A DNA stretch of 58,314 nt from Candidatus Micrarchaeota archaeon (lineage in GTDB: Archaea > Micrarchaeota > Micrarchaeia > Anstonellales > Bilamarchaeaceae), in the NCBI GenBank assembly GCA_040754495.1, contig JBFMCO010000014.1, positions 1 through 58,314 on the forward strand, in the 5' to 3' direction. Numbering within the stretch: position 1 is the stretch's first letter; every line of letters starts with the position of its first letter. Below the pieces are notes generated by a model that saw nothing but the letters and a program-made list of their open reading frames with translations, ran no database searches and was not told the DNA's origin. Both the position numbers and the translations under genes were made by a program. Below are positions 25,165-46,278 of this stretch, one piece after another.

Positions 25165-25407
25165 GGGCTCGTAGCTCAGTCCGCCTTTTGGGAAAAGGCG
25201 GCCCAAAACCGACTGATGAAAAACGCTTCGCGTTTTTGGCCGAATCCAATCAAAAGGCGGGAGCAGCTTGGATAGAGCGGCAGCCTTCTATGCCCCCGGC
25301 ATCCGGTTTCCGGTTTCCAGTCCCGCGTTTCGGGTACTGGTTGCCGGCTGCAGGATGCCGGATGCGCAGGCAGCTGTAGGTCGGGGGTTCAAATCCCCCC
25401 GGGCCCG
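25165..25407 (+). tRNA. tRNA-Arg(TCT) with introns at 15/16 (25180-25266) and 37/38 (25291-25371)
   Basis: GGGCTCG/CGGGCCC, GCTC/GAGC, A20, GCAGC-CTTCTAA-GCTGT, GGGGG-TTCAAAT-CCCCC; near-perfect BHB for the D-loop intron. Confidence 0.95.
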
Positions 25408-25694
25408 TATCCGCTTCCGGTTTCCCGTTTCCCGTCTTGAGTTTGACTCAGGCGGATACGGGACGTCCATGTTCCGCCGAACATGGTGCGCCTCCCTACT
25501 GTTCCTTGAACAATGGGGCACCGCGACGCCGTGCGTCGCGATTGTGTTCGGGGCGCCGGACAAGTGCGCGGAAGTGAAATCATCAGATTTCACAACGGGC
25601 CCGATTTTGTTTCACGTCCAGCGAATCAAATATAAACCCCTTTCGCTATAGATTGGATGTTAATTCTGGAGAATCCGAGCCGCCAGGTGGGAGT

Positions 25695-25946
25695 ATGATG
25701 GACATCAAGCAGATAAGCGACATGATAGACGACCTCGTCAACGACACGAGCATCCCGAAAAACATACGGCGCGCCCTCTCAGAGGCGAAGACGAGGCTGG
25801 ATAGCAACGAGGAGAACAACGTCAAGATAAGCGCTGCAATCTACGTCATAGAGTCCATAACCGAGGACATAAACATGCCCGCCCACGCCCGGACCCAGAT
25901 ATGGGCGATAATGAGCGCGCTCGAGACGCTCAACGAGCGCCCCTGA
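25695..25946 (+). CDS. UPF0147 family protein
   Basis: ND.SIPKNIRRA, DINMPAHARTQIW. Confidence 0.9.
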   Translation: MMDIKQISDMIDDLVNDTSIPKNIRRALSEAKTRLDSNEENNVKISAAIYVIESITEDINMPAHARTQIWAIMSALETLNERP

Positions 25947-25951
25947 TTAGC

Positions 25952-27382
25952 ATGATAGAGCTTGCCGAGAACGGGATAAGGCTTACCGTCGAGGCAGAGG
26001 GATTTTTGAAAGAGAACGGCTCTGACGAATTGCTCCGCAAGATACTACTCCTGAAGAAGCCCCTGGTGTCGAAAGAAGACATAGAGGCCCTTGTCCGGCC
26101 CCCGGAGCCGGAGCCCGCGGTCGAAGTGGTAATGCCTGCCGAGTTCAATCCGGCCGCGAAGGAATACTCCCCGAACATCAAGCTCGACCACTCGCTGGAT
26201 GTCACGGGCAAGTCCCGCACGAAAGGCGAGGTGGATAATTTCATCGCCAATTTCAGGAACCGCTTCGAGCGCATCTCGAAGATGCTCCGGAGGAGCGGGC
26301 CGGTCCCGAACGCGGACCTCGGGGACATCAAGCGCCATCTGAACGAGAGGGTCCGCGTCATCGTATTCGTATCCGAGAAAAGGGAGACGAAGAAGGGCAA
26401 TCTGCTCTTCGAAGTGGAGGACATGACCGGAACCTTCAAGGTTGTCATATCCCACTCCCGCTTCAACGAGAAAATCGTGGACAAGGCGAAGCAGGTGCTC
26501 AGGGACGACATCGTGGCGATATCTGGAAAGGTCCTCGAGCCGTACATCATAGCCGAGGATATCGAATGGCCAGAGCTTCCGGTCATCCGCGAGAAGAAAC
26601 GGGCCGAGGTGGATGTCGCCTGCGTGTATCTCTCCGACCTGCATTTCGGGAGCCGCTATTTCCTCGGCAAATACCTGAAATCATTCTCCGAATGGCTCCA
26701 CGGAAGGGGCGAGGCCAGGGAGCTTGCCGGCAAGGTGAAATACGCCTGCATAGCCGGCGACATCGTAGATGGCATAGGCATCTACCCCAACCAGGAGAAG
26801 GAGCTCGTGGTCAAGGACATCTACCAGCAATACAAGATGTTCGACGATTTCATAAACGACCTTCCGGATTATATAGAGGTGATAGTCGCCCCGGGCAATC
26901 ATGATGCCGTCCGGAGGGGCGAGCCGCAGCCGGCCATCGGCAAGGACCTCACATCGGCCGACATCATACGGGTGGGGAACCCCTCCTCGCTCGCCATAGA
27001 GGGCATAAAGCACCTCATGTACCACGGCACCTCCATGGATTCGATGATAGCGAGCATCCCGGGCGCGACTTACATGCATCCGGAAAAAGTCATGGTCGAG
27101 TATCTGCGGCGCAGGCACCTTTCCCCGATATACGGGGGCAACCTCATAATCCCGGAGAACGTCGACTACATGGTGATAGAGGACCCGCCGGACATATTCC
27201 ACTCCGGCCATGTTCACAAGAACGGCTACACGCAGTATCGGGGCACACTCGTGATAAACTCCGGAACGTTCCAGGACAGGACGGACTTCCAGGTGAAACA
27301 GGGCCACGTGCCCACCCCCGCCCTCGTCCCGGTGTATGAGATGCAGTCCGGGCGGCTCCACACCCTCGATTTCAAGTCATAA
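25952..27382 (+). CDS. polD1: DNA polymerase D small (proofreading) subunit DP1
   Basis: F.NRF, OB fold, SDLHFGS, GDIVDGIG.YP.Q, PGNHD, YHG.S.D, GHVH, NSGTFQ..T.FQ. Confidence 0.95.
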   Translation: MIELAENGIRLTVEAEGFLKENGSDELLRKILLLKKPLVSKEDIEALVRPPEPEPAVEVVMPAEFNPAAKEYSPNIKLDHSLDVTGKSRTKGEVDNFIANFRNRFERISKMLRRSGPVPNADLGDIKRHLNERVRVIVFVSEKRETKKGNLLFEVEDMTGTFKVVISHSRFNEKIVDKAKQVLRDDIVAISGKVLEPYIIAEDIEWPELPVIREKKRAEVDVACVYLSDLHFGSRYFLGKYLKSFSEWLHGRGEARELAGKVKYACIAGDIVDGIGIYPNQEKELVVKDIYQQYKMFDDFINDLPDYIEVIVAPGNHDAVRRGEPQPAIGKDLTSADIIRVGNPSSLAIEGIKHLMYHGTSMDSMIASIPGATYMHPEKVMVEYLRRRHLSPIYGGNLIIPENVDYMVIEDPPDIFHSGHVHKNGYTQYRGTLVINSGTFQDRTDFQVKQGHVPTPALVPVYEMQSGRLHTLDFKS

Positions 27383-27444
27383 CAATGTTTATAAATTTAG
27401 ACTGACAATCCGGGGTTAGAAAAACATTTACCGATGGTGGTTTG

Positions 27445-27702
27445 ATGGCCAAGTATCTGATAGCCAGGCAGCTCTCCGGGAAAAAGCTTGTGACCAACGA
27501 AGGCGACGACTTCGGAAGGCTCGTTGACATAGACGTAAACGAAGTAAGCGGAAAGATAGAAAGCCTGATTGTGGAGCCGAATCCGGACAGCGAAGTTGCC
27601 GGGAAGCTCAAGAAGGAGGATGGCATGGTGCACATCCCGTACGAGAGCGTCCTCGCAGTCGGCGATTTCATTATCGTAGAGAAAAGGAACATGTCATATT
27701 GA
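27445..27702 (+). CDS. PRC-barrel domain protein
   Basis: L.GK..VT..G...G...DI.V....GKI, IPY..V.AVGD.IIV. Confidence 0.85.
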   Translation: MAKYLIARQLSGKKLVTNEGDDFGRLVDIDVNEVSGKIESLIVEPNPDSEVAGKLKKEDGMVHIPYESVLAVGDFIIVEKRNMSY

Positions 27703-27799
27703 AGGGGCAGCCCTTCAGTATCTTAAATTTTATCCGCTTTTTGTCAGTTTTTTCCTCCGCTCCTCCCCCGTTTTAAACCCGTCTTAATATAGGGACTAC

Positions 27800-28438
27800 A
27801 TGCAGTCGTCCATAGCCGGCATAGACGAGGCCGGAAGAGGGCCGGTCATAGGCCCCCTTGTCATCTGCTGCGCCTCGTGCAGGAGGGAGGACGAGAAGGC
27901 CCTCCGGAAGCTGGCATCGAAAGACTCCAAGGCGCTCACAGCAGCCCAGCGGGAGGAGAACTACGCGAAGCTGAAGGGCTTCGTGACGTTCCGCTGGCAC
28001 GAAATCAGCGCGGCGGACCTGAACCGGCTCATGGAAAGCATGACGCTCAACGACATAGAGGCCAAGTACATGGCCGACCTGATAAAGAAGGCCGGGGACG
28101 GGGACGTCATGATAGACATGCCCGACCGCTACTCGTGGACCTTCCGCAGGAGGATGGAGCGCTTCGGGGTGGACAAATTCGAGGCGGAGCACAAGGCGGA
28201 CGAGAATTACCCTATCGTGGCCGCCGCCTCGATATGCGCGAAAATCATCCGCGACGCGAAAATAGAGGAGATACGGAAGGCGACATGCGATTTCGGGAGC
28301 GGCTATCCGGGCGACCCGAAGACAGTGGCCGCCCTGAAGGACAAGGCGAAGCGCGCCATGCTCGAGCCGTTCATCCGGCAGAAGTGGAAGACGCTCGAAA
28401 ACATAAAGCAGACGAAGCTGTTCGATTCAAGTGATTAG
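27800..28438 (+). CDS. rnhB: Ribonuclease HII
   Basis: GIDEAGRGPVIGPL, DSK.L, EHKAD..YP.VAAASI.AK, GSGYP.DP. Confidence 0.95.
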   Translation: MQSSIAGIDEAGRGPVIGPLVICCASCRREDEKALRKLASKDSKALTAAQREENYAKLKGFVTFRWHEISAADLNRLMESMTLNDIEAKYMADLIKKAGDGDVMIDMPDRYSWTFRRRMERFGVDKFEAEHKADENYPIVAAASICAKIIRDAKIEEIRKATCDFGSGYPGDPKTVAALKDKAKRAMLEPFIRQKWKTLENIKQTKLFDSSD

Positions 28439-28720
28439 ATGGCAAAGGTCAGGGTCAGGAACGACAATGTCACGCTCGAGATTCCGGACGGGGGCTTCCT
28501 CCTCCCCTACCTGTGGGAGAAAACCTCCTTCCCCCAGGGCTGCGAGGACGGCACCACGCCGATTTGCGCGTGCGTCATCCTGAAGGGCGAGGAGAACGTG
28601 AGCCACAAGACGCAGCGCGAAATCGAGACCCTGCACAACGCGAGGCTCCCGAATTCCCATAAGAACCGCCTCGCGTGCCAGATGTACATAAAGAAAGGGG
28701 AAGTCGAAATAGAATACTGA
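28439..28720 (+). CDS. 2Fe-2S ferredoxin-like protein with atypical Cys spacing
   Basis: GCEDGTTPICAC...G.EN...RLACQ. Confidence 0.75.
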   Translation: MAKVRVRNDNVTLEIPDGGFLLPYLWEKTSFPQGCEDGTTPICACVILKGEENVSHKTQREIETLHNARLPNSHKNRLACQMYIKKGEVEIEY

Positions 28721-28758
28721 GTGAAGGGAACCAAGGTTCCCATCCACCCTCCTTTTTT

Positions 28759-29496
28759 TCAGCCGCCGGTGCCGTTGCTCTCAACCGTAATGGTGCCGGT
28801 CAGCGCCCTGAAGAGCTGCGAGTAGTATTCGCACTCGCCGAGCTCGGTCATGGCGATTGTGGCGTTCTTGCCCGAGGCTATGGAGCCGGTGTCGAATATC
28901 TTCGCGCCCCCGATGAAGCACGTCGCGGTCTGGGGCATCTGGCCCTCGTTCACCCACGTCACGCGGTCCCCGAGCTTCACCGTGAGCGATTCAGGCTCGA
29001 AGCCATCGCCCGTTATCTTTACCGTGTAGTCGACCGGCACGTACTCGGCAGGCCTCTCCCTCTCTATCGTGAAGGTGACCGTCTTGGAGACGGTTGGCGA
29101 GTACGGCGTCCTGTCGTTGTTGAGCAGCTCCACCTTTATGGTGTGCGTCCCGAGGGACATCCCGCTTATGAGATAATTCTTCGTGGTCACGGTCTGGGGC
29201 ACGCCGTCGTCGACGGTCACCCGGAAGTGGCCTTCCCCTTTCTTCGCCGCGCCGCCGGGCGAGCGGAGTATCAGGTTCTGCGTTGTGATGCTCAGCGTGA
29301 TGTCCGCGGTATCGCCCTGCGTCAGCACGACCTCGCCTTCCGCGGGGCTCGCGATGCTCATGGCCACCGGCTTTGCAGGCGGCGGTGGCGGAGGCGGTGG
29401 AGGCGTCTCATTGGTCAGGTTCTGCTCCTGAGGAAACAGGAAGCAGCCCGAAATCACTAGCGAAACCAGTATCAGGCCCAAGAACAGCGCTCTCAT
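28759..29496 (-). CDS. Lipoprotein with Ig-like (DUF4399-like) domain and cupredoxin-like domain
   Basis: Lipobox ISGC, poly-Pro linker, GHFRVTVD, F.P..LTVK.GD.VTWVN. Confidence 0.75.
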   Translation of the reverse strand: MRALFLGLILVSLVISGCFLFPQEQNLTNETPPPPPPPPPAKPVAMSIASPAEGEVVLTQGDTADITLSITTQNLILRSPGGAAKKGEGHFRVTVDDGVPQTVTTKNYLISGMSLGTHTIKVELLNNDRTPYSPTVSKTVTFTIERERPAEYVPVDYTVKITGDGFEPESLTVKLGDRVTWVNEGQMPQTATCFIGGAKIFDTGSIASGKNATIAMTELGECEYYSQLFRALTGTITVESNGTGG

Positions 29497-29551
29497 GAGG
29501 AGATTCTTCCCCCGAAAGTCATTTTAAAGCGTTGCCCCAGCGTTCATTCCG

Positions 29552-30190
29552 ATGACAAAGGCGGTATTATTCGATTTCGACGGCGTCATAGTGGACTCCG
29601 AGCCGCTGCACATGAAGACGTTCCTGGAACTCCTCGCTCCCTACGGAGTGGAAGTTGGCACCGAGCGATGGTACCGGGAATTCGCGGGGACGGGCTCAAG
29701 GCACATCTTCGAGGTCCTCGTGAAGGAGCACGGCATCCAGGAGGACGTCGACGGGCTGGTGGCCAGGAGGAAGGCGCTCTACGAGTCCAGGGTGCGCGCA
29801 GGCGCCCTGAAGGAGATGCCCGGCGTGCGTGATTTCCTGCGCCTTCTCCGCGAGCGCGGCATCAAGGCCGCGATAGTTTCCGGCAGCCACAGGACCAACG
29901 TGCAGGCAGCCCTCGAGATGCTCTCGCTTGGCCAATTCGACCTCATCGTGAGCGGGGACGACCTGAAGGAGAGGAAGCCCGAGCCGGGCCCTTTCCTTTT
30001 CGCCGCAAAGAGGCTCGGCCTGAAGCCGGGCGAATGCCTGGTCATCGAGGATTCGATATCCGGGTGCGTCGCCGCGCGCAGGGCCGGGATGCGCCTTGTC
30101 TGGATGAAGCCACCGGTCGGCTTGGCGCAGCAGGAAGCCGACCTCGTGGTCTCTGATTTCCGGGACAAGGGCCTGCTTGGCCTCCTATGA
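29552..30190 (+). CDS. HAD-family phosphatase (beta-PGM-like)
   Basis: FDFDGVIVDSE, KPEP, IEDS..G..AA..AGM. Confidence 0.9.
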   Translation: MTKAVLFDFDGVIVDSEPLHMKTFLELLAPYGVEVGTERWYREFAGTGSRHIFEVLVKEHGIQEDVDGLVARRKALYESRVRAGALKEMPGVRDFLRLLRERGIKAAIVSGSHRTNVQAALEMLSLGQFDLIVSGDDLKERKPEPGPFLFAAKRLGLKPGECLVIEDSISGCVAARRAGMRLVWMKPPVGLAQQEADLVVSDFRDKGLLGLL

Positions 30191-31039
30191 TTCCAGGCTC
30201 TGGACCGCCGCGAGCGCGGCCCTCATCTCCACGGCCGACTGGTACCTTTTCCCGGGCTCATTCTCGGTCGCCTTGGCTATTATCGTCCCTATCCTGGAAG
30301 GGAGGCGGATGCGCTGTACCTTGTCTCCCGGGTTTGGCGGCATGCCCGTCAGCATGTACGACGCCAGCATGCCTGCGGCGTAGAGGTCCGTCCTCCCGTC
30401 CACCCCCGCCCCGAACATCTCCGGGGCGGCGAACATCCCGTTTCCAGGGACGAAGGAGAGCGTGAAGAACGAGCGCCAGCCCATCCTCTCCGAAACCCCG
30501 AAGTCTATCAGGGTCGGGGCGTTTCCGTCAAGCATTACGTTTTCGGGCTTCACGTCGCGGTGCACGAATCCCGCTCCGTGCGCCGCTTCCAGGGCTGACA
30601 GCACGCCATCGAGTATGGCCCGGGACTCTCCCCACGGCAGGCTCCCGAGCCTCATGATGCGCTCGTGCAGGGACTCGCCTGCCAAATGCCCGAGAACCAG
30701 AAATGGGGCGCCTTCGAACGGCCCGTCCCTGAAAACCCCGGAGTCGAGGAGGGCGATTACATTCGGATGGATTATGCAGCGCAGTGCCTTCTCTTCCTTG
30801 CGCAATGCCGTGCGGGCATTGTCCGTCCCGGCCGCTATCTTGATGGCGACCTCGTCCCCGCTCTTCCTGTCGAGCGCCCGGTATACCGTCGCCATGCACT
30901 CGCTTCCCTCCCTCTCGGCAAGCTCGAAGCGGGCCATGCTCTCGGGCTGGCTCCGGAACGGCCGAAGCTCGCGCAGGATGCAGGCGAGGCCCCTCGCCTT
31001 CGCCTCGCTCATGGCGGGCTCTGGGCGCTCTTTCTTCAT
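30185..31039 (-). CDS. Hanks-type Ser/Thr protein kinase (kinase domain only)
   Basis: VAIK, HRDVKPEN, DFG, APE, D.YA.G. Confidence 0.85.
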   Translation of the reverse strand: MKKERPEPAMSEAKARGLACILRELRPFRSQPESMARFELAEREGSECMATVYRALDRKSGDEVAIKIAAGTDNARTALRKEEKALRCIIHPNVIALLDSGVFRDGPFEGAPFLVLGHLAGESLHERIMRLGSLPWGESRAILDGVLSALEAAHGAGFVHRDVKPENVMLDGNAPTLIDFGVSERMGWRSFFTLSFVPGNGMFAAPEMFGAGVDGRTDLYAAGMLASYMLTGMPPNPGDKVQRIRLPSRIGTIIAKATENEPGKRYQSAVEMRAALAAVQSLES

Positions 31040-31065
31040 GTGATAATTAGTGGATGAACGTTATT

Positions 31066-32058
31066 TTAAAGTGATGCGATTGCCTCCCTCATTTCGGCAG
31101 CGGTCTGGAACCGCTTCTCCGGGTCCTTTTCGAGGGCGCGCATCATGACCGCATTAGCTCCCCCTGGGATTATGACTCCCAGCTCGCTTAATGGGAGGGG
31201 GCGCGCCTTTCTTATCTGCTCTACAATCGCGTAGGCACTGAAAGAACCGGCATCATACGGCCTCCTGCCGCTCAGCATCTCGTACATGATAACGCCGGCC
31301 GCATGGATGTCCGCCTTGCGGTCGAAGTCTTTTCCGGCCAGCTGCTCGGGTGCCATGTAAGCGATGGTACCGGCTATGACGCCCGGGGGTGTACGTTCGG
31401 CATCCCCGTCCGGGGCGTCCGTGAATTTCGCAAGGCCGAAGTCGATGAGTTTCAGGATGCGCCTCCCCTCATCGTCCAGCACGAGTATATTGCCCGGTTT
31501 CAGGTCACCATGGACGACAGCCGCATTATGCGCCGCCTCAAGGGCGTTGCATAACTGCGTCAGAAAAGGCTTCGCATATTCCCACGGGAGCCCCGGACCG
31601 ATAATCCGTTCGAGTTGCATTCCTTCGAGATACTCCATCACGAGGAACTCCATGCCTTCTGCAAAGCCTACATCTACGAACCCGACGACATTCTCCTGGC
31701 TTATTCTTGAGAGCGCTTCAATCTCCCTTCTGAGGAACCGCGATGACTCCTCGATGGGCGTTGCCAGCCGGTCGGCCGCAAACTTCAGGGCGACTTTCCT
31801 GCCGCTTTCATCAATTGCCGAATAGACATCGCACATGTTGCCGGAACCGATAACGGTCCCGATTCGATAGCGGCCATCAACTATCCTGCCCTCCAGGTTG
31901 GCCGGCCCATCCAGTCTGTCGAAGAAGGCAGCGAACTCGTTTTGAGTCGGGACCTGCATTTTCGGCGTGGCGGCCCCCGTCATGGCCCGTCCCGGGTGGA
32001 GCATGGTCATGTTATAATTAGTGGTGGATTGTTCTTTTAAAGCTTGGTAAAAGCTCAT
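31066..32058 (-). CDS. Hanks-type Ser/Thr protein kinase (non-RD)
   Basis: IGSGNMCDVY, VALK, HGDLKPGN, DFG, GTIAYMAPEQ, RPY, DP.KRF. Confidence 0.9.
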   Translation of the reverse strand: MSFYQALKEQSTTNYNMTMLHPGRAMTGAATPKMQVPTQNEFAAFFDRLDGPANLEGRIVDGRYRIGTVIGSGNMCDVYSAIDESGRKVALKFAADRLATPIEESSRFLRREIEALSRISQENVVGFVDVGFAEGMEFLVMEYLEGMQLERIIGPGLPWEYAKPFLTQLCNALEAAHNAAVVHGDLKPGNILVLDDEGRRILKLIDFGLAKFTDAPDGDAERTPPGVIAGTIAYMAPEQLAGKDFDRKADIHAAGVIMYEMLSGRRPYDAGSFSAYAIVEQIRKARPLPLSELGVIIPGGANAVMMRALEKDPEKRFQTAAEMREAIASL

Positions 32059-32089
32059 TTTTATACTTATCTCGCCACAATTACTCCCA

Positions 32090-33832: not shown

Positions 33833-33905
33833 AAGCCCGGAAGGCATCGGCATTAAATGTTTTGGTGGCATTAATTCTTATTCGGAAATCCGCTCGAGGT
33901 CATTC

Positions 33906-36697: not shown

Positions 36698-38076
36698 AGC
36701 AGCCTGCTGAAGGCGGCCTCTATTTTCGCCCTTTCTCTGTCTGCAAAATCAAGGCTCTCGTGCCTGAATTTGGCCTTCAGGCGAGGGCGCGAGAGCGATT
36801 TGAGCGCGGCCCAGTTCTCCTCTCCTATTTTCATGCCGAGCAGCTTTGATGCTTCCCCCGCCTTGATAGCCGATATCGTCCTGCCGTCCTTTTCGCAGTG
36901 CTTTACAAGCCTGCCTGCCATCTCGTGGGCTTCCCGGAAAGGCATGCCGTGCATCGCAAGGTAATCGGCGATTTCGGTCGCCTGCGCGAAACCCCCGTCC
37001 AGTTCCTCCTCTATCCTCTTCCTGTCGAATTTCAGGCCCCGGACCACCATGGCCATCGCGTCCAGGCAGGCCTCGGCCGTGTCAAGGCCGCCCATCATTG
37101 CCGCTTTCGTCTCCTGCATATCGGAGTTGTAGCCGCTCATCAGGCCCTTGAGGGCGGTGAGGCAGTGGTTAAGGTTGCCGTACACCCTCCCGGTCCTCCC
37201 CCGCACCAGCTCGAGCACATCCGGGTTCTTCTTGTTCGGCATGATGCTGCTCCCTGTGGTGTGCTCCTCGGCAATCCCGACCAGGCCCTTCTGGGAGAGC
37301 CATATGAGCTCCTCGCTGAGCCTCGAGAGCTTGCACATAAGCAGCGAGAGGGCGGCAAGGAGCTCGGTTTCGCATTCGCCCCTGCTATTTATCGTGTCGA
37401 AGGCGTTCTCCTGCACGGCAGGGAATGCAAGAAGCGCCGCGGTCTCTTTCCGGTCTATCTTCCAAGCCGTGCCAGCGACGGCGCACGCCCCGAGCGGGCT
37501 CTGGTTTATCCTTTTATAAGCATCCTGCAGGCGTTCGATGTCCCGCGATAAGGAGTCATGCCATCCCTGGCACCAGAAAGAGACGGTTATCGGCTGGGCT
37601 ACCCGGGTGTGCGTATAAGCCGCCATCGGGCCGTCGTTTTTGGCAAGGCCCGCAAACGCCTCCCGCAGCGATTCCACCTCCTCTATGACATCGAGCGTCC
37701 GGTCCCGCATGAACAATCTCATGTCCAGCAGGACCTGGTCGTTCCTGGAGCGGGCGGTGTGCAGCTTCTTCCCGGCCCCGGTCATGCGGGTGACCGCGCT
37801 CTCCACGTTCATGTGCACGTCCTCGAGCCTGGGTTCGAGGCCGAAGCGTCCCTCCTTCCAGTAGCCGTACAGTCTCTTTAGCGCCGTGGCGATGGATTCG
37901 TAATCCGCGGTCGGGATTATCTCCTGCGAATAGAGCATGCGCGCGTGCGCCAGGCTGCCGAGGATGTCGTACGGTATGAGCCTCTCGTCGAGCGCTATGT
38001 TCTCGGCGCTGTTGAACAGAACGGCCTTCTCCGACGGCCCCTTCCCGAAGCGTCCGCCCCAGAGCATCTTCTTCAT
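36694..38076 (-). CDS. argH: Argininosuccinate lyase
   Basis: LWGGRF, EDVH..VE, HTARSRNDQ, TGSSIMPNKKNPD. Confidence 0.95.
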   Translation of the reverse strand: MKKMLWGGRFGKGPSEKAVLFNSAENIALDERLIPYDILGSLAHARMLYSQEIIPTADYESIATALKRLYGYWKEGRFGLEPRLEDVHMNVESAVTRMTGAGKKLHTARSRNDQVLLDMRLFMRDRTLDVIEEVESLREAFAGLAKNDGPMAAYTHTRVAQPITVSFWCQGWHDSLSRDIERLQDAYKRINQSPLGACAVAGTAWKIDRKETAALLAFPAVQENAFDTINSRGECETELLAALSLLMCKLSRLSEELIWLSQKGLVGIAEEHTTGSSIMPNKKNPDVLELVRGRTGRVYGNLNHCLTALKGLMSGYNSDMQETKAAMMGGLDTAEACLDAMAMVVRGLKFDRKRIEEELDGGFAQATEIADYLAMHGMPFREAHEMAGRLVKHCEKDGRTISAIKAGEASKLLGMKIGEENWAALKSLSRPRLKAKFRHESLDFADRERAKIEAAFSRLL

Positions 38077-38106
38077 GCTTACACCTGACCGCCAAGGCTT
38101 ATGAGG

Positions 38107-38166
38107 TTTTCAGTTTCCGGTTTCCTGTCTTGGGCGCTGGACCCGAAACCGGGAACCGGAAACCGC
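38107..38166. repeat. Intergenic heptamer (GGTTTCC/GGAAACC) inverted-repeat hairpin
   Basis: GGTTTTCAGTTTCCGGTTTCC ... GAAACCGGGAACCGGAAACC between argG and argH. Confidence 0.75.
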
Positions 38167-38178
38167 AGTCGCCGCCCG

Positions 38179-39411
38179 TCACGGCTTTTTTTTCCTGTGC
38201 ATGATGGCATGGTGGGCCATGAGCCGGATGGCGTTTATCTTGATGAACCCGACCGAGTCGGTCTGGTTGAACCCGCCCTCTATGTTCATGCTCGAGAGCT
38301 CCTTGTCGTAGAGCGAGCTGGGGGATTCCCTGCCCTTTATCGTGATGTTGCCCTTGTACAGGGACAGCCGGACTACGCCGTCTATGACCTCCTGGCTCTT
38401 GTTTATCGCGGCCATGAGGAAATCCATCTCAGGGCTGAACCAGAAGCCGTTGTAGACGAGCTCCGAGAACTTGGGCTCCAGCATGTCGCGCAGGCTCATC
38501 ACCTCGCGGTCCATGGCGACGGCTTCTATGTCCATGTGCGCAGCGCGCAGGATTGTGGCCGCGGGCGTCTCATATACGCCGCGCGACTTGATGCCGACGA
38601 AACGGTTCTCCACGATGTCTATCCTGCCGATGCCGTTTTGCGCCCCGAGCTCGTTCAGGTACACGAACAGCTCGAGCGCGTCCGTCTTCACAGTCCCGTC
38701 GTCCTTGTTCAGGACCTTGACCGGGATGCCGTCCTTGAAATGGACCTCTATGTCCGTCTCTTTGTCAGGCGCATCCTTTGGCGACTTGGTCCATTCGTAT
38801 ATGTCGTCCGGCGGAGCAGCGGCCGGGTCCTCGAGTATGCCCGATTCATAAGAGATGTGCATCAGGTTCGCGTCCGTGCTGTACGGCTTCTCGTGCGTGG
38901 CCTTGATGGGTATCCCCTTCTCCTTCGCGTAGTTTATCAGGTCCGTCCTGCCCCTGAACCTGGAGAGGAACTCCGGGTCCTTCCACGGGGAGATGACATT
39001 TATCCTCGGGTTAAGCGCGTAATACGTGAGCTCGAAGCGCACCTGGTCGTTCCCCTTGCCGGTCGCGCCGTGGGAAACGTACTCCGCTTTCTCCATCTCC
39101 GCTATCTCCATCTGCCTCTTCGCGATGATGGGCCTCGCAAGGGACGTGCCGAGCAGGTACCTGCCCTCGTATATGGCGTTCGCCTTTATTGCCGGGAAGA
39201 TGAAGTCCGTCACGAACTCCCTTTTCAGGTCCTCGACATAGACTTTTGATGCGCCCACCTTGAGCGCCTTCTCCTTCGCGGCCTTGAAATCCTCCTGCTG
39301 CCCGACGTCGGCGATGTAAGCCACGACGTCGTAGCCCTTCTCGACAAGCCACTTCAAAATGCACGACGTGTCAAGCCCTCCAGAGTACGCCAGTACGACC
39401 TTGCCTTTCAT
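38179..39411 (-). CDS. argG: Argininosuccinate synthase
   Basis: [45 protein letters not shown]; true start MKGKVV. Confidence 0.97.
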
Positions 39412-39995
39412 GTGCCCAATCCTCCGTTCCGTAATATTGTTTCCGGCATGGCGGCGACAAGCGGCACCAGCCTGGCAACCTCTTCCGGGGGCAGGTTGTT
39501 CCAGAACACGAGCCATTTTCCGCTCTCTACGGAGCCGTCGCTCCTGTACCATCCCTTGTGCTCGTTCACGAGGGATGTCCGCCATATCAAGGAATCATAA
39601 GCGTCTTTAATGCATTCCCAGAGCGCCTTCCCGACTCCCGTTCCCTGGGCATGGGGGGCCACCGCGAGCTTGTCCAGGTACGGGGCGCCGCCGACCCTCT
39701 TCACGACCGCTATGCCATCATAGTGGCCTGCGAGCATGACCAACTCGGCATGCGTCTCGAAATAGCCCTGCGCAAGGGGCTTTGCGAAGCTCGACTCTAT
39801 GAGTTCCCGGGCCCGGCCCGTATCTATAGCCCCGAAGCCGCGGCTGATGGCAATCGGGCATTTTTTCAGGATGCCCTCCGCGAGCGGAGCCGCCTGCATC
39901 GCCCCAACGGCCATCCTGCGCTCGTCCGCCCGCGCGATAGCCGCCCTTTCCAGCACGACCATCAGCCTTCCCTCCATAGCGGCGCGGTGCAGCAT
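39408..39995 (-). CDS. Stand-alone DUF619-type N-acetyltransferase domain (NAGS NAT-like)
   Basis: YLDKLAV...AQG.GVG..LW, L.WR....N....WY, W.VFW. Confidence 0.7.
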
Positions 39996-40900
39996 CTCGG
40001 CGCGCCCTCTCCGGTGAGTATCCCCTCGAACGGGATGTCAATGACCTTGAAGCCGATTTTGCGGAGCTGCTCGTTCACGGCACGGGCCGATGTCGTCGAT
40101 ATCACGGTCTCGGGGTTCACGAAGAACAGGTTGGTCCAGCCGCCCAGGTGCTCCTTCTCCGGGACGCCGATGACATTGCGGACATGCAGCCGCTTCTTCA
40201 GGGCCCCTATCTGCCCCTGGTCCGCGTAGAGGTCGTGGCAGACCACCATAGTGCGCATCTTCCCCCGCCCGCCGACCGTCGTGGCATAATCGAGGTGCAG
40301 CGTGCCTGCACGGAGAGGCACCGGTATCACCTCCCGGCCGCTGAGTGCCTGCCGGAGCGTCTCGACCGCCGGCATGTTGGTCCGGTCCCCGAGGCCGACA
40401 AGCACAGCGTCCGGGAATACGAGCACGTCTCCGAATTCCAGAACGTCGTTTCCCTTCCATGGCGCCTTCGCCCCGCATATGAGCGACACCTCTCGCGAGC
40501 GCACCGGATACTTGAACTTGGCCGCGAACGCATTGTCGCCTATCACGCCTAGCGAATCCCGCTGGTAAACCCCTTCCGGCAGGTCCGGCCGGGGCATGAC
40601 ATAAACCACCTGCGCGCCCTCGTTCTGCAGCGCTTCCACGAGCATCCCGTGCTCCTTCTTCACCTGCTCCTGCGACGGCGGAAGGTTGGACCGCTGCACG
40701 TCGTTTATGGCGCTCTCATTGGTCCATGCGAGGTAATCCGGCGGATGGACCAGGACTGCCTTGAGTTCACCGTCCTCCGAGTCGCACTTGACCTTCCGGC
40801 CGATGAGGTTTATGCCTTCTACCTGAAGCTTCGCGCCTCTCCCGAAAGGCTTAACGCACTCCCGCTCGTGGGGCTTTGCAGATACGGCCTGGCCCGGCAT
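39962..40900 (-). CDS. Arginine deiminase/amidinotransferase (pentein) family protein; start uncertain
   Basis: SE.GELK.VLVH, EH..LV..L, YQRD, EFGDV, LHLD, C-terminal G.PRCCT.PL.R. Confidence 0.8.
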   Translation of the reverse strand: MPGQAVSAKPHERECVKPFGRGAKLQVEGINLIGRKVKCDSEDGELKAVLVHPPDYLAWTNESAINDVQRSNLPPSQEQVKKEHGMLVEALQNEGAQVVYVMPRPDLPEGVYQRDSLGVIGDNAFAAKFKYPVRSREVSLICGAKAPWKGNDVLEFGDVLVFPDAVLVGLGDRTNMPAVETLRQALSGREVIPVPLRAGTLHLDYATTVGGRGKMRTMVVCHDLYADQGQIGALKKRLHVRNVIGVPEKEHLGGWTNLFFVNPETVISTTSARAVNEQLRKIGFKVIDIPFEGILTGEGAPRCCTAPLWREG

Positions 40901-40904
40901 GCTT

Positions 40905-41501
40905 TCACCTGGTCAGGGTCGCAGCCCTTCCGCGGGCCGGCCTTTCCTTCCTGGTCGGGCCCTTCAGGCAGCCGTCGTTCTCGGACGCCATCAGCGAATA
41001 TATCCGCGCATCCGCCTTTTTCAGCAGCGTCGCAGCCGCCATCTGCGTCTCTTCCCTGTTCTTTCCGTGCGCGGTCTCGAGGACATGCCTGAGGTGCACC
41101 TTGATGGACTCCAGGTGCATGGTCGCCTTGCACGACTTTATCAAGCCGCAAAGGTTGGTATAGGAGTATGAGCGCACGAAGCGGCTCTCGTCCTTGAGGG
41201 CTTCGGTCAGGGCCGGGACTGCCTTGTGGTCCTTCGTCTTCCCGAGGGCTATCGCGGCAGGGCACTTGACCACCACCTCATCGTGCATAAGCGCATCGGA
41301 CAAGGCCCCGATGGCCTCCGGCGCCCCGATTTTGCCAAGCGCCTTGGCCGCCGAGGCCCGGACGTACGGGACAGGGTGCTTCAGCGCCTGGAGCAGGGGC
41401 TGGACTGCCTCCTTTCCCGCGGAAGCAACGGCCAGGATGGCTTCCTTGCGAACGAGCGCATCCTCGCTCTCGAATGAGGAAATATGATATTGGACCTGCA
41501 T
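40905..41501 (-). CDS. HEAT/PBS-lyase repeat protein
   Basis: Repeated VR..AA.ALGKIG...A...L. Confidence 0.8.
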   Translation of the reverse strand: MQVQYHISSFESEDALVRKEAILAVASAGKEAVQPLLQALKHPVPYVRASAAKALGKIGAPEAIGALSDALMHDEVVVKCPAAIALGKTKDHKAVPALTEALKDESRFVRSYSYTNLCGLIKSCKATMHLESIKVHLRHVLETAHGKNREETQMAAATLLKKADARIYSLMASENDGCLKGPTRKERPARGRAATLTR

Positions 41502-41608
41502 GTTATCGCACGACTAGCTGCGGAATACGCTTATAAAGTTTCCGTAAAATATGTTACAAATATGAATATCGACGTTACAAATGGAACAAATTAAGCAAGG
41601 TGCGGCAT

Positions 41609-42205
41609 ATGGAAAGCACGTCCCAGCTCGTCTGGCTGTATGTGAAGCAGAGGCCCTTCCTCAAGGAGGTCCTCAGGCAGGGCGTCGTCAATTATTCGGC
41701 CCTCGCGAGGAAGATATCCATCGAGGCCTTCGGAAGCGCGAGGAAGCAGAACGCGGTCAAGATGTCCCTCATCCGGCTCAGCGCACGGATGAGCGAGGTG
41801 GAATCGGACCTGGAAGGGAAGATACTGTCCGTGCTCAGGAAAAGCTCCATGGTCCTCAAAAGCAAGGTCGCGGTCGTGATAGCGAAAAGGGAGCTGGAGG
41901 GCCTGCATCCCCTCTCGCAGGTGAAATCCGGGCGCCACCTGACGTATATCCTCGAGCAGCGAGAGCTGGAGCGGATATCACGCAAGCTCATATGGAAGTG
42001 CGAGGAGAACCTCAACCTGATAACCATAGAGAGCCCGGAGGACGTGGAGGAAGTCCCCGGCGTCATCTCCCACCTGCTTGGCGCCCTTGCCGGGGAAGGC
42101 GTGAACGTGGTGGAGTTCATCTCGTGCTACACGGACACGCTCCTTGTCGTGCGGGCCGCAGACACCGAGAAGACATATCGCGTCCTCTCGGGCATAATGG
42201 GCTAG
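41609..42205 (+). CDS. ACT-domain regulatory protein (archaeal type)
   Basis: VNYSALAR N-terminus; C-terminal ACT PGV...L...LA..G.NVVE..SCYTD. Confidence 0.8.
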   Translation: MESTSQLVWLYVKQRPFLKEVLRQGVVNYSALARKISIEAFGSARKQNAVKMSLIRLSARMSEVESDLEGKILSVLRKSSMVLKSKVAVVIAKRELEGLHPLSQVKSGRHLTYILEQRELERISRKLIWKCEENLNLITIESPEDVEEVPGVISHLLGALAGEGVNVVEFISCYTDTLLVVRAADTEKTYRVLSGIMG

Positions 42206-42234
42206 CGGGCAGCAGGCCCTTCAGTTTTTTTGCA

Positions 42235-43920
42235 TCAGGGACTGAAGGATATCTCGTAGTCGAGCGTCTTGACGCTGTCCCCCTCGATGACTCTCAGGGT
42301 GAGGTATAGCGTGGCCGAGCTGCCGAGGTCGTCCACGTAGTAGAACACGAGGTCCTGGTCCTCCGCTGCATCCGGGTATATGGTGCCGAGGTCGCCCGTG
42401 TAATACATGGATGCGTCGTACTGCTTCCCGCCGCTGACAAGGACCGCTTCCTTTATCTCGACCTCCTTTTTCTTGGAGCCGGTGTTCTTCACCTCTATCG
42501 CCAGCGTGTAATCGTCATAGTACGAGCTTGAGATGCCGCCCTCGACCAGCGTGACCTGCACGCCGCCGTTCGTCTGGCTCTTCCCTATCGGCTCGAGGTC
42601 AGGGCCGTAATCGTAGTCGTAGCCGGAGCCCGAGTAGGCCTCTATCAGCGATGTCGGCAGGTATACCTTCTTGGTGCGGTTCATCCTCGTGCCGTTCGAT
42701 TCGAGCTCGATGACGACATCCGCATAATCGCTGTTCTCGGACTTGTTCATATCGCTGAAATAGATGTCCGTCGTGAAGGCGCTCTTGCCGTAGAAAGGAT
42801 ACCCCTCGACCTGCTCGAAATCGTTCTTGATAAAGTCCAGCTTGCCGGAGTACATAATCTTGCCGGCATCGTCCCTTATGGTTATGTTCCCCTTCCCGTC
42901 CGCCACGGTCACGTCCCCGTTCTTGTCGACCAGGGTGAATGAGACCTCGTACCAGTCCCCCTCATCTGAATAGTAGTCGTACTGCTCATAGACGTCGAGC
43001 GCGCCTATCGCCGCCGGCGGAAGCTGGCTCGGGGCGGTCTTCGCGCCGCCTGCGCCGGCGAACGGGGAGCCGGAAAAGCCGTCCTTCATGGCGGTGAAAT
43101 CCGTGGCGGCTATGGCGAAATTCAAGCCCTCGACGCCGTACCCGGCGTATTTCCACGTGTTTATCCCGACGAGCCTGCCGTCCTTGCCGAACATGCCTCC
43201 GCCGCTGTTGCCTTCGTTCACAGCCGCATCCGTCTGGATGGCCGTGTACTTCTCGCCGAGGGCGCTCTCGGTCTCGAATTCCCTAATCCCCGAGACGATG
43301 CCCTTCGAGACGCTCCACTCGAGCTGCTCCGGCATCCCTATGATATAGACGTCCTCCCCGGTGCCAGGCACCGCGGCAGCAATCTGCGCGCTCTCAAGCT
43401 CCTCCGCACCCTTGGTGAACGTGACTATCGCCAGGTCTATCCCGCCGGGGGCATAGAGCCTCTCGTCCGCGAAATAAGTCGCGTTGCCATATGTCCTTAT
43501 CATGACCTGCTCGTTCTTCACGTCGTAATAGCCGTCCGGATAATTAAGGTCCACGACATGCCTGTTCGTGAGGACATATGCCTTGTCGCCCTGTATGTCG
43601 TAGATGACGCCCGACCCGATGAGGCTGAAGCCATCATCGTAGCTGTATCCGTACCAGTCGTAGTAGTCCTCGCTCTCGCCGCTGTAATTGAGATGCACCA
43701 CGCTCATCTTCATATTCTCGATGAGCGACGTCACATCCGCCTGCCCGGCCTTCACGGCGGATTGCCCGGTTGCGTTCCCGGGAGACGGCAATCCCCTCGT
43801 GAGATTGCTCATATTCTTGCCGGCAAGCTCCTTCCCCGCGACTGAAGCTATGTCCATGCAGCCCGCGCTGAAGATGGCCAGAACCAGGAACGCTGCCCAT
43901 ATCCCCCTCATAAGCACCAC
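42235..43920 (-). CDS. Trypsin-like (S1C) serine protease lipoprotein with acidic Ig-like C-terminal domains
   Basis: Lipobox SAGC; LTNRHVV, DLAI, QTDAAVNEGNSGG. Confidence 0.9.
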   Translation of the reverse strand: MVLMRGIWAAFLVLAIFSAGCMDIASVAGKELAGKNMSNLTRGLPSPGNATGQSAVKAGQADVTSLIENMKMSVVHLNYSGESEDYYDWYGYSYDDGFSLIGSGVIYDIQGDKAYVLTNRHVVDLNYPDGYYDVKNEQVMIRTYGNATYFADERLYAPGGIDLAIVTFTKGAEELESAQIAAAVPGTGEDVYIIGMPEQLEWSVSKGIVSGIREFETESALGEKYTAIQTDAAVNEGNSGGGMFGKDGRLVGINTWKYAGYGVEGLNFAIAATDFTAMKDGFSGSPFAGAGGAKTAPSQLPPAAIGALDVYEQYDYYSDEGDWYEVSFTLVDKNGDVTVADGKGNITIRDDAGKIMYSGKLDFIKNDFEQVEGYPFYGKSAFTTDIYFSDMNKSENSDYADVVIELESNGTRMNRTKKVYLPTSLIEAYSGSGYDYDYGPDLEPIGKSQTNGGVQVTLVEGGISSSYYDDYTLAIEVKNTGSKKKEVEIKEAVLVSGGKQYDASMYYTGDLGTIYPDAAEDQDLVFYYVDDLGSSATLYLTLRVIEGDSVKTLDYEISFSP

Positions 43921-44095
43921 AAAAGAACTTATAGAGAAACATTTGGTACGAAATCCTTATAAAATGGGATTCGGACGGCCTGCGCGAGGGCCGCTTGGCT
44001 GTGAGAAGCCGCCACGTGAACTCCTGGTCTGGTTGTCAATCCGAAGGATTGGCAAACGATTAGTTTTTTGGCCCCTTTTTTTCTAAAAAAGGGGA

Positions 44096-44254
44096 CGGGC
44101 CAGGTGAGATTTGAACTCACGACCTTCACCTTCCGCCTTTTAGGAAAAGGCGGCCAAAACGGCCTCTCCATTTCCCGAAATTAGGACGGTGCCGCTCAAG
44201 ACTCAGGGAAGCAGAACTGCTTGCCCCAATCTATCCAAGCTGAGCTACAGGCCC
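44096..44254 (-). tRNA. tRNA-Arg(CCT) with introns at 22/23 (44197-44230) and 37/38 (44132-44181)
   Basis: GGGCCTG/CTGGCCC, GCTC/GAGC, A20, GTGAG-TTCAAAT-CTCAC; good BHB at 22/23; U6-U67, G27-A43 and G32 are atypical. Confidence 0.75.
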
Positions 44255-44308
44255 ATGGCCAATCATTGCTGGCATGAATTTAAAAACCGTTTTCAGCATC
44301 TTCCAGCC

Positions 44309-45070
44309 ATGATTCTGCCGCTATCCGAGCTCATCAGCCGTGGCGTCGAACAGACGCTCGAGGACCGGGTGGCGGTCTCGTTCTCGGGCGGCCTTGATTC
44401 CACTGTCATAGCATCAATCGCGCGCAGGCATGCGCAGGTCGAGCTTTTCACAGCCGGCGTTGAAGGCAGCGAGGACCTGGAATACGCAGGCAAGGCTGCA
44501 GCGGCCCTCGGCCTTCCCCTCCACCGCATCATCATAGACGAGCAGAAGGCCATGGAGGCGTACGCCAGGTGCCACTCGATGCTCCCCCTTGATTTCCTCA
44601 AGCTCGAAATCCTGGTCCCGGTCTATTTCGTGGCCGAGGCGGCCGCCGCGAAAGGCCACAGCGTAGTGCTTTTCGGCTCGGCAGCAGAGGAGCTTTTCGC
44701 GGGCTACGAGCGCTATTACGTTTGCCGGGACGAGGGCAAGGACGTCGAGAAGCTCCTGAAGGAGGAGTTCCGCACCCTGCCCCAGCGCGATTTGGCCTGG
44801 GTGAAAAGGGTGTGCCGCTGCTTCTCCATAGACGCACGCTTCCCGTTCTACTCCAAGGATGTCGCAGACATAATGTTCTCGGTGCCGCTCGAGGACCGCA
44901 TGGACGACCGCGTGCTCAAGAAAGGCATACTCCGCGAGGCAGCAAAGGTTCTCGGGGCTCCGGACATCGTGCTCAAGAGGAAGAAAAAGGCCATGCAGTA
45001 CGGCTCCGGCGTCCACAAGATGCTGATTCGCCGCGTGGAAGAGATAAACCGCTCTTACCCGAGCTCATGA
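44309..45070 (+). CDS. Asparagine-synthase-like C-terminal domain protein (no glutaminase domain)
   Basis: VSFSGGLDS, GSAAEELFAGY, RFPF, K.ILR.AA, RKKKAMQYGSG. Confidence 0.85.
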   Translation: MILPLSELISRGVEQTLEDRVAVSFSGGLDSTVIASIARRHAQVELFTAGVEGSEDLEYAGKAAAALGLPLHRIIIDEQKAMEAYARCHSMLPLDFLKLEILVPVYFVAEAAAAKGHSVVLFGSAAEELFAGYERYYVCRDEGKDVEKLLKEEFRTLPQRDLAWVKRVCRCFSIDARFPFYSKDVADIMFSVPLEDRMDDRVLKKGILREAAKVLGAPDIVLKRKKKAMQYGSGVHKMLIRRVEEINRSYPSS

Positions 45071-45904
45071 GCGGCGCATCGCAGCCTCTATCACGTTGCT
45101 TATCAGCATGGCGACGGTCATCGGCCCGACCCCGCCCGGGACCGGGCTGCAGTTCGCTTTCTTTATTACGTTTGGGAAATCCACGTCGCCCACTGTCTTG
45201 TCGCCCACCCGGCTGGTGCCGACGTCTATCACATGCGCGCCTTCCCTGACCATGTCCGCCTTCACGAGGCCCGGCCTGCCCGCCGCGGCGATGAGGATAT
45301 CCGCGTTCCGGGTGTGCTCGGCCAGGTTCCTGGTCCTGGAGTGGCATATCGTGACCGTCGCGTCCCGCTCGAGAAGCATGAAGGCGAGCGGCTTGCCGAC
45401 CACGTTGCCGCGCCCTATCACCGTCGCATTCGCGCCGGCGATTTTCACGCCGTAGAAATCGAGCATCTTGATTATCCCCATCGGAGTTGCCGGCATGAAC
45501 GTTTCGGATATCCCGAGGAACATCCTTCCCATGTTCGTCGAAGTCCAGCCATCGACATCCTTCCGCGGGTCTATCGCCTCGACCACATTCGGGTAATTGA
45601 TGTGCTTCGGAAGGGGCGACTGCACTATGAAGCCGTCTATGGAATCGTCTTTGTTGAGGCCCCCCACCAGCTCAAGGAGCTTATCCTCGCTCGTGTTCTC
45701 GTCCATGGCTTTGAGGCTTGTCATCACCCCGACTGATTCTGCCTTCTCCATCTTCTTGCGCACATATAGCTGCGAGGCCGGGTCGCTGCCGACAAGGACG
45801 ATGGCAAGGTGAGGGGCTCGCTTCATGGTTCTCACTATGTTTTTCGCGTTCTCGAGGATTCCCGCGGCCGGCTCGCGGCCGGACAGTGTCTTATACGCCG
45901 TCAT
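45065..45904 (-). CDS. folD: Bifunctional methylene-THF dehydrogenase/cyclohydrolase
   Basis: P.LA.VLVG.DPAS..YV..K, KDVDG, P.TP.GI, GRG..VGKP, VGDVDF, PVPGGVGPMT. Confidence 0.95.
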   Translation of the reverse strand: MTAYKTLSGREPAAGILENAKNIVRTMKRAPHLAIVLVGSDPASQLYVRKKMEKAESVGVMTSLKAMDENTSEDKLLELVGGLNKDDSIDGFIVQSPLPKHINYPNVVEAIDPRKDVDGWTSTNMGRMFLGISETFMPATPMGIIKMLDFYGVKIAGANATVIGRGNVVGKPLAFMLLERDATVTICHSRTRNLAEHTRNADILIAAAGRPGLVKADMVREGAHVIDVGTSRVGDKTVGDVDFPNVIKKANCSPVPGGVGPMTVAMLISNVIEAAMRRS

Positions 45905-46036
45905 AACGGTCTGGCTCCTGGTGTCCCCAGTTTCCTGAACACTGACCTTCTCGCAGTGAAGGGTTTTAAAAACGTTTATCGGTTTAATAGTCTCGAACAT
46001 ACGACAGCGCCGGCACATGGCGATGGGGTGTGTTTT

Positions 46037-46278
46037 GGGCCTGTAGCTCAGCTCGGTTAGAGCGACGGTCTTATACGACACGTTCTAGCACAGTTGTCTA
46101 TACGACTGAGTGCCTATGAAAGCCGTAGGTCCGGAGTTGCGCTTTTTGGGAAAAAGCGCCCAAAAACGTGTTGATGAAAAACGTTTCGCGTTTTTGGGAA
46201 TTTCCATCTGAAAGGCGCAACGGAATTCAAAAGAGTCGAAGGTCTCGACCTGCGATTCTGCGGCTCTCCGCAGGCCCA
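46037..46278 (+). tRNA. tRNA-Ile(TAT) with three introns: 37/38 (46076-46120), 53/54 (46137-46225), 59/60 (46232-46264)
   Basis: GGGCCTG/CAGGCCC-A73, ACGGT-CTTATAA-GCCGT, CGGAG-TTCAAAT-CTCCG after splicing; BHB-like motifs at each junction. Confidence 0.85.

Follow-up and report, generated by a model that had tools for sequence, protein, structure and literature searches.

Within a 58,314-nucleotide (nt) stretch of DNA from a Candidatus Micrarchaeota archaeon (GenBank assembly GCA_040754495.1, contig JBFMCO010000014.1; the whole stretch is referred to as the window), the genes for tRNA-Arg(TCT), tRNA-Arg(CCT) and tRNA-Ile(TAT) are interrupted by several introns, and one intron of each gene contains the same hairpin-and-tail module. 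These three introns lie at different positions of their tRNAs and, in tRNA-Arg(CCT), the module is reversed relative to the tRNA. In the following, we are discussing the relationship of the three introns to each other and to the larger intron family of which they are part. The genome comprises 1.63 Mb in 72 contigs and is 80% complete; it is designated G000 and its contigs carry C numbers, while other G numbers denote other genomes and L numbers stretches of other genomes.

As the window stands, with the introns in place, no tRNA is called by ARAGORN or by Rfam at its gathering thresholds, because each of the three genes is broken by two or three introns. Introns were excised by hand before ARAGORN was applied; run by brute force with its intron option, the program accepted too much for isotypes to be assigned. 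Upon excision, three canonical 75-nt tRNAs were obtained, Arg(tct), Arg(cct) and Ile(tat) (Table 1). For the 15/16 intron of tRNA-Arg(TCT), the splice register is fixed by the intron-less orthologs L027, L031 and L038, in which GCTCAGCTTGGATAGAGC runs across the junction.

Table 1. Interrupted tRNA genes, their introns and associated features of the window (positions as in the window; layouts given from 5' to 3' of the intron).
Feature	Position	Strand	Details
tRNA-Arg(TCT) gene, two introns	25165-25407	+	exons 25165-25179, 25267-25290, 25372-25407; ARAGORN after excision
tRNA-Arg(TCT) 15/16 intron, 87 nt	25180-25266	+	T, 5' arm, second hairpin, GTTTTTGG, distal AAAAGGCGG, GAGCAG; in about 25 of 30 orthologs, 5 without
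5' arm of 15/16 intron, hairpin	25181-25201	+	
5' arm of 15/16 intron, tail	25202-25209	+	CCCAAAAC
Shared 26-mer in 15/16 intron	25214-25239	+	TGATGA, hairpin AAAACGC-TTC-GCGTTTT, TGG
tRNA-Arg(TCT) 37/38 intron	25291-25371	+	
tRNA-Arg(CCT) gene, two introns	44254-44096	-	exons 44254-44230, 44195-44182, 44131-44096; ARAGORN after excision
tRNA-Arg(CCT) D-stem intron	44229-44196	-	
tRNA-Arg(CCT) 37/38 intron, 50 nt	44181-44132	-	decayed 5' arm (ATTTCGGGAAATGGAGAGGCC), GTTTT, intact 3' arm (GGCCGCCTTTTCCTAAAAGGCGG)
3' arm of Arg(CCT) 37/38 intron, hairpin	44133-44153		as read on the + strand
3' arm of Arg(CCT) 37/38 intron, tail	44154-44160		as read on the + strand, after the hairpin
Variant module in tRNA-Arg(CCT) trailer	44063-44094	-	CCCCTTTTTT-AG-AAAAAAAGGGG + CCAAAAAAC; one base past tRNA 3' end, forward relative to tRNA
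tRNA-Ile(TAT) gene, three introns	46037-46278	+	exons 46037-46075, 46121-46136, 46226-46232, 46266-46278; ARAGORN after excision
tRNA-Ile(TAT) 37/38 intron	46076-46120	+	
tRNA-Ile(TAT) T-loop 53/54 intron, 89 nt	46137-46225	+	5' arm, second hairpin, distal AAAGGCGC, AACGGAA; register ambiguous owing to flanking TT
5' arm of 53/54 intron, hairpin	46139-46159	+	
5' arm of 53/54 intron, tail	46160-46167	+	
Shared 26-mer in 53/54 intron (second hairpin)	46172-46197	+	
tRNA-Ile(TAT) 60/61 intron	46233-46265	+	
Epsilon2-type tRNA splicing endonuclease (EndA), 391 amino acids	33906-35081	+	full-length match to 4fz2_A (ARMAN-2 EndA), E 1.2e-132
pyrF (orotidine monophosphate decarboxylase type 2), open reading frame	16871-17746	-	
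Module in frame within pyrF	17191-17219	-	encodes LRLLGKGAPKR; net gain 7 codons

The module common to the 15/16, 37/38 and 53/54 introns is about 29 nt long and is composed of a hairpin, CCGCCTTTT-RGG-AAAAGGCGG, followed by the tail CCCAAAAC. A first-pass annotation, made from the letters of the window alone, had described the three introns as homologous at three different positions, and at the level of the module this holds. The 26-mer on which that description was partly based is identical at 25/26 positions between the tRNA-Arg(TCT) and tRNA-Ile copies, with a chance expectation of 0, and the hairpins CCGCCTTTT/AAAAGGCGG and GCGCTTTTT/AAAAAGCGC are both present and differ by compensatory changes, as had been stated. 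The 26-mer corresponds to the central hairpin TTGAAAAACSC...GSGTTTTT of full-length introns, and its 3' strand is able to pair with the tail as well. In both the tRNA-Arg(TCT) and tRNA-Ile introns, GTTTTTGG can also pair with the tail, and only the last strand of the 3' arm is left (AAAAGGCGG or AAAGGCGC). Further copies in the window, absent from the first-pass annotation, are found in pyrF, in the 3' trailer of tRNA-Arg(CCT) and, as a decayed 5' arm, within the tRNA-Arg(CCT) intron itself. A reading of TGATGA...CTGA as the boxes of a C/D box small RNA was rejected: the boxes are unconserved, orthologs having TGTTGA, GGATGA or AATGA in place of TGATGA, CUGA is absent from the tRNA-Arg(TCT) intron of G000, and no Rfam match to such an RNA was obtained at E up to 1.

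In the 37/38 intron of tRNA-Arg(CCT), the module follows the hairpin-then-tail order on the + strand and is antisense to the tRNA, which lies on the - strand; the local alignment score of this intron is 48 as reverse complement versus 27 in the same sense. The reversal that the first-pass annotation had reported is real. Palindromic symmetry alone, which had been left standing there as a possible explanation of the match, does not account for it: when both stem strands were kept fixed and all else was shuffled, the observed reverse-complement score was reached in only 4/5000 shuffles (against the tRNA-Arg(TCT) intron) and 2/5000 shuffles (against the tRNA-Ile intron). The orientation signal of the module lies in its loop and tail. 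At 160 sites anchored on the T-run, the A-run and the tail, with no condition set on the stem, the tail strand has AGG, GGG, GG, AGT or AG as its loop in 135 cases, and a CC loop occurs at three.

What this reversal means becomes apparent from full-length introns of the same genome, which carry the hairpin and CCCAAAAC at their 5' end and GTTTTGGG and the hairpin at their 3' end, i.e., terminal inverted repeats with inward-facing tails, around an interior of one or two central hairpins. Such two-arm introns include C51 58840-58935, C58 3256-3349, C66 843-938 and C56 56494-56619, as well as examples on C26, C59, C28 and C50, and deletion of the two-arm element restores tRNA-Pro(CGG), Gly(CCC), Gln(TTG), Glu(TTC) and Leu(CAG). 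In all intron copies of this genome, the hairpin abuts the splice junction and the tail faces the intron interior; by inspection, this rule is obeyed in 24/24 copies, 11 of them forward at 5' ends and 13 reverse at 3' ends. The pattern extends to other species, where 17 reverse copies have a T-loop motif 15-20 nt past the hairpin, as expected of the 3' end of a 37/38 intron, and forward copies never have one less than 27 nt past the tail. Among tRNA-Ile orthologs, the module is forward and at the 5' end in 23/23 hairpin-type T-loop introns, three of which are two-arm, and tRNA-Arg(TCT) orthologs show the same, without exception, in the 15/16 introns that were parsed. Where the centre of a full-length intron is asymmetric and informative, it runs in the sense of the tRNA (9/9 cases).

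For the tRNA-Arg(CCT) intron, homologs of the same sense are at hand. The intron of tRNA-Thr(TGT) at C52 is 91% identical to it over 44 nt, the tRNA-Arg(CCT) orthologs of G021, G006 and G052 contain introns that agree with it in form and sense, the stems of the G006 copy covarying (the pattern search for orthologs was mostly noise at 2 mismatches, and only these three exact ones were used), and at least 12 relatives have a 3'-arm form of the same sense in the 37/38 position of tRNA-Arg(TCT). In addition, the stretch ATTTCGGGAAATGGAGAGGCC of the tRNA-Arg(CCT) intron resembles an inner 5' arm; its loop, GGG, is of the forward type, and in the minimum-free-energy fold this stretch is paired with the 3' arm. 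The tRNA-Arg(CCT) intron is a 3'-arm form with a decayed 5' arm, and those of tRNA-Arg(TCT) and tRNA-Ile are the opposite, with the 5' arm intact and the 3' arm decayed. Given the same-sense homologs and the 9/9 co-oriented centres, no inverted insertion is needed.

Minimum-free-energy folds of the tRNA-Arg(TCT) and tRNA-Ile introns together with their flanking exons are long rods: the distal 3' strand is bound by the outer strand of the 5' hairpin, and GTTTTTGG by the tail. At the base of the 15/16 rod, exon GCTC and intron GAGC form a 4-bp helix that is flanked by the 3-nt bulges AG/T and AG/C (slash, splice site) and by an outer helix of CCGCCTTTT/AAAAGGCGG. This is a clear 3-4-3 bulge-helix-bulge (BHB) motif, and its GCTC/GAGC register reproduces the GCTCAGCTTGGATAGAGC of the intron-less orthologs. 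The smallest 15/16 ortholog (L047) consists of just T, the hairpin and GAGTAG. T-loop introns share the same grammar, GTTC AA/...GAAC AA/. The first-pass annotation had also invoked an epsilon2 endonuclease, and such an enzyme is indeed encoded in the window, with two tRNA_int_endo domains in one frame. This EndA gene, of the three-unit epsilon2 type, sits between the interrupted tRNA genes; a weaker second tRNA_int_endo match is present at G000:C31:19406-19636. The epsilon2 EndA of ARMAN-2 has been reported, in passages of PMC3239211, to cleave strict and relaxed motifs alike.

The core of the module, CGCCTTTTnnnAAAAGGCGsCCCAAAAC, occurs in 30 copies in this genome when up to 5 substitutions and 1 indel are allowed (0-1 in shuffles), and a structure-based scan of the genome gave 48 strand-counts versus 1 in a shuffle. 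At least 17 tRNA genes contain the module, at positions 15/16, 37/38 and 53/54. A near-exact pattern was found in 18/24 other sampled genomes of the genus; the 16 genomes sampled from other families of the same order all lack it. At least 111 stretches from species-representative genomes contain the exact pattern, and nearly all carry the label Micrarchaeota, Micrarchaeia or Bilamarchaeum; an exact 28-mer is common to many species, and viral contigs gave no exact match to the module. Two exact 28-nt matches lie in a bacterial metagenome-assembled genome (L065 and L113, Ruminococcaceae UMGS1591), both within a local repeat (CGCCTTTTCGAAAAAGGCGGCCCAAAAC then TTTTGTGCAC...); these are probably an unrelated terminator-like repeat or contamination and were set aside.

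The stems of the module covary. Across the 160 anchored sites, 107 are fully paired versus 2-26 with slid partners, and 20 stem variants occur. In the tRNA-Arg(TCT) orthologs, changes in the 5' strand of the 15/16 intron are matched in both of its partners, local and distal (CCGCC, GCACC, GAAAC, CCCGC, TGCGC, TAAGC). At the same time, the introns come and go between species. Of about 30 tRNA-Arg(TCT) orthologs, 5 have no 15/16 intron; the 37/38 intron of the same gene is of a GGTTTCC-repeat type in G000 and of the 3'-arm type in most relatives, and three relatives lack it; and a T-loop intron of this tRNA is found in G022, not in G000. The hairpin intron of tRNA-Ile is located at 53/54 in 17 species and at 58/59 in 6, while 5 have another hairpin and 1 has none, and orthologs at the T-loop site exhibit one-arm, two-arm or nested forms. 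These presences and absences are unrooted, and no direction, gain or loss, is assigned to them. Between G000 and G022 (L035), the 87 nt of the 15/16 intron share 92% identity, as against 45% for the third codon positions of pyrF, which indicates that the intron is either selected or homogenised from a conserved source; the tRNA leaders of these two genomes differ and are unrelated.

The module is not confined to introns. In an alignment of 13 pyrF orthologs, the loop that contains the in-frame copy reads ELRLLGKGAPKRG..LYE in G000 and G018, and 11 others have the short form ELKCGKK-YLYE. In G021, pyrF is broken between two contigs precisely at the point of module insertion. The variant behind tRNA-Arg(CCT) has the composition CCCC T6 AG A7 GGGG plus CCAAAAAAC and is followed by a TTGCCAATCC..GGATTGACAA hairpin; the same trailer copy lies after a tRNA at C22:18.8 kb and after a tRNA 3' end at C23:10331. 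The T-run of the trailer module might be a terminator or a processing site. Copies between open reading frames are found at C28:26818 and C29:3093, and the non-tRNA copies at C5, C29, C28, C50 and C68 have no Rfam match. The pyrF, intergenic and trailer copies cannot stem from endonuclease-mediated splicing chemistry alone and support a copying of the module at the DNA level, comparable to that of repetitive extragenic palindromes (REP) and Rickettsia palindromic elements (RPE). Two regions, G000:C50:30500-30980 and G000:C5:21000-21200, have module copies in hairpin-rich, promoter-preceded non-coding stretches, for which no Rfam family was found at E up to 0.1, except for a weak sR44 C/D-box match (L057 301-380); both regions may represent RNA genes that are as yet undescribed or much interrupted.

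Another repeat, of imperfect heptamer-like GGTTTCC/GGAAACC simple repeats, fills the 37/38 intron of tRNA-Arg(TCT). It is also found in the window at 25408-25445, 3240-3281, 17836-17904, 38092-38133, 46524-46555 and 49373-49414, and genome-wide in tRNA trailers and intergenic spacers, with one T-loop intron at C4. In some relatives, this type of repeat stands in place of the hairpin-type 37/38 intron.

Taken together, the three introns probably represent one Micrarchaeota-wide family of BHB tRNA introns that are built on a mirror-symmetric scaffold, so that what looks like an antisense copy in tRNA-Arg(CCT) would reflect a symmetry inherent to the family rather than an inverted insertion. The layout of the family would be a splice junction, a hairpin (a-RGG-a'), CCCAAAAC, a variable centre, GTTTTGGG, a second hairpin and a splice junction; its members exist in two-arm, 5'-arm-only and 3'-arm-only forms. 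According to this model, the intron RNA would form a long rod, in which the outer strand of the 5' hairpin and the far 3' end make up the outer helix of the BHB, and the few intron nucleotides past this helix would pair with the exon to give the 4-bp helix at the centre of the motif, after which both bulges would be cleaved by the epsilon2 endonuclease of the window. The hairpin-and-tail module itself may spread via REP/RPE-like copying at the DNA level and could, in this way, seed or remodel introns, with tRNA introns as its presumed chief safe harbour.

Several points weigh against this interpretation. The counts of 24/24 and 9/9 overstate its support, since orthologous and paralogous copies are not independent, and intron positions in other genomes were judged by the T-loop motif and by eye, not by full annotation. 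The BHB motifs of the tRNA-Ile 53/54 intron (TCCG/CGGA with bulges GAG and ATT) and of the tRNA-Arg(CCT) 37/38 intron are relaxed or ambiguous in register, and splicing at the predicted sites is inferred. A two-arm ancestor is not the only conceivable origin of the 3'-arm-only class, which might go back to one module inserted in reverse long ago; the decayed 5' arm in tRNA-Arg(CCT) counts against this, though the remnant is short. Finally, no mobilising enzyme was found: a match to PF01797 (Y1 transposase) is absent from the 80%-complete genome, other enzyme families not having been searched.

The first-pass annotation had interpreted the reversed module as an element of one orientation that was copied at the DNA level, in inverted form, into tRNA-Arg(CCT), where it is tolerated by a promiscuous epsilon2 endonuclease. 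The inverted match is statistically real, the endonuclease gene is present, and copies outside introns indicate that DNA-level copying exists; nevertheless, we regard this scenario as highly improbable, given that the intron end occupied by a module fully predicts its orientation (24/24), that both orientations occur together in two-arm introns, that asymmetric interiors are never inverted, and that homologs of the same sense exist for the tRNA-Arg(CCT) intron, which also retains a 5' remnant of the forward type. With a two-fold symmetric family, the inverted copy no longer serves as a sign of inverted DNA insertion, nor does it argue against reverse splicing of RNA, as had been proposed, since orientation neither favours nor disfavours an RNA-level route. 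Of the DNA-level route itself, the copying of the module stays plausible on the basis of the coding and intergenic copies, but not on that of the inverted orientation.

Spread at the RNA level would proceed by reverse splicing at sites where the last 4 exon bases pair with the 3' end of the intron, followed by copying back into DNA, and the symmetry would then reflect the two-fold BHB substrate. This would be in line with introns that close on a sequence complementary to the exon tetramer before them, followed by the bulge bases once more (GCTC AG/...GAGC AG/; GTTC AA/...GAAC AA/), with interiors that are always co-oriented with the tRNA, and with hairpin introns at either 53/54 (17 species) or 58/59 (6) of the same tRNA. 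However, an exon-complementary end is needed for splicing by whatever route an intron arrived and, hence, does not discriminate, and the in-frame pyrF copy and the intergenic copies are left unexplained; such a route is quite unlikely in our estimation. Alternatively, there may be no mobility at all, if the module were a selected RNA element, such as a folding switch or a protein-binding site, in vertically inherited introns whose similarity stems from constraint and gene conversion. The 92% identity of the 15/16 intron between G000 and G022 beside 45% at pyrF third positions, the exact 28-mer in many species and the two covarying alternative partners, local and distal, of each 5' strand fit this, yet gain, loss and shift between species (15/16 absent from 5 orthologs, 53/54 or 58/59 in tRNA-Ile, replaced 37/38 content in G000) and the pyrF and intergenic copies, which have no intron role, do not, and we consider it rather unlikely.

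Among known systems, the transposed tRNA introns of the Thermoproteales (Fujishima et al. 2010, Mol Biol Evol 27:2233, as cited in PMC4090602 and PMC3239211) come closest, and the parallel drawn to them in the first-pass annotation is apt in the light of passages of PMC4090602. As expected of that kind of family, closely similar intron sequences occur here in different tRNAs and at different positions within one genome, and presence or absence differs between related species. Passages of the review PMC4090602 already suppose a DNA-level transposition for the Thermoproteales, with gain thought to be limited by the requirement for a BHB motif. Unlike in these families, a short hairpin-and-tail module forms terminal inverted repeats in the introns described here, the host is a DPANN archaeon of the Micrarchaeota with an epsilon2 enzyme, and the module is also located in coding sequence, in tRNA trailers and between genes; the passages of PMC4090602 and PMC3239211 that deal with the Thermoproteales contain no mention of a palindromic architecture. 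In ARMAN-2 (Candidatus Micrarchaeum acidiphilum), which is of the same phylum and has the same enzyme type (the 4fz2 match), disrupted tRNA genes and an epsilon2 EndA are described in passages of PMC3239211 and PMC3488258. According to passages of PMC3239211, ARMAN-2 has introns at 37/38, 53/54 and 59/60, many non-canonical introns, with two in one T loop, and a tRNA-Ile(UAU) with a canonical intron. The introns described in these passages are, however, short (13-25 nt), and no shared intron sequence family is mentioned in the part of PMC3239211 that was available, where the terms "hairpin" and "sequence similarity" have no match. In the literature searched, no published description of a hairpin-terminated, two-armed intron family in Micrarchaeota was found. 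The present one is a genus- to phylum-level family of palindromic BHB introns that is built from a copyable hairpin module.

REP and REPIN elements of Proteobacteria and the RPEs are short, dispersed palindromes, which often occur as inverted doublets that form one long hairpin, and RPEs are tolerated in frame within protein genes. The unit described here resembles REP/REPIN elements in being a dispersed palindrome of about 30 copies with inverted doublets. It differs from them in that most copies are located within tRNA introns, where they are part of the splice motif, in its archaeal host, and in that no REP-associated tyrosine transposase (RAYT/Y1) accompanies it in the genome at hand.

For the origin and movement of archaeal tRNA introns, the transposed introns of the Thermoproteales are the only well-known case. 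For the interpretation of such introns, a correction follows from the present analysis: an inverted match between palindromic introns is no evidence of inverted insertion. Furthermore, the genus supplies many dated snapshots, in which the same tRNA is intron-less or has a 28-nt hairpin intron, a one-arm, a two-arm or a nested intron, at differing positions, together with a defined repeat that turns up in coding sequence and between genes too; on these grounds, the route of intron gain becomes testable. As a tentative extension, it is conceivable that the module is a self-propagating palindromic element which supplies the outer helix of the BHB motif and creates tRNA introns wherever four adjacent exon bases pair with its end, and that its local and long-range pairings constitute a selected folding switch; this would account for a conservation of whole introns far above that of synonymous sites. 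If true, such a self-propagating module would represent a direct and still-active route of intron birth in archaea.

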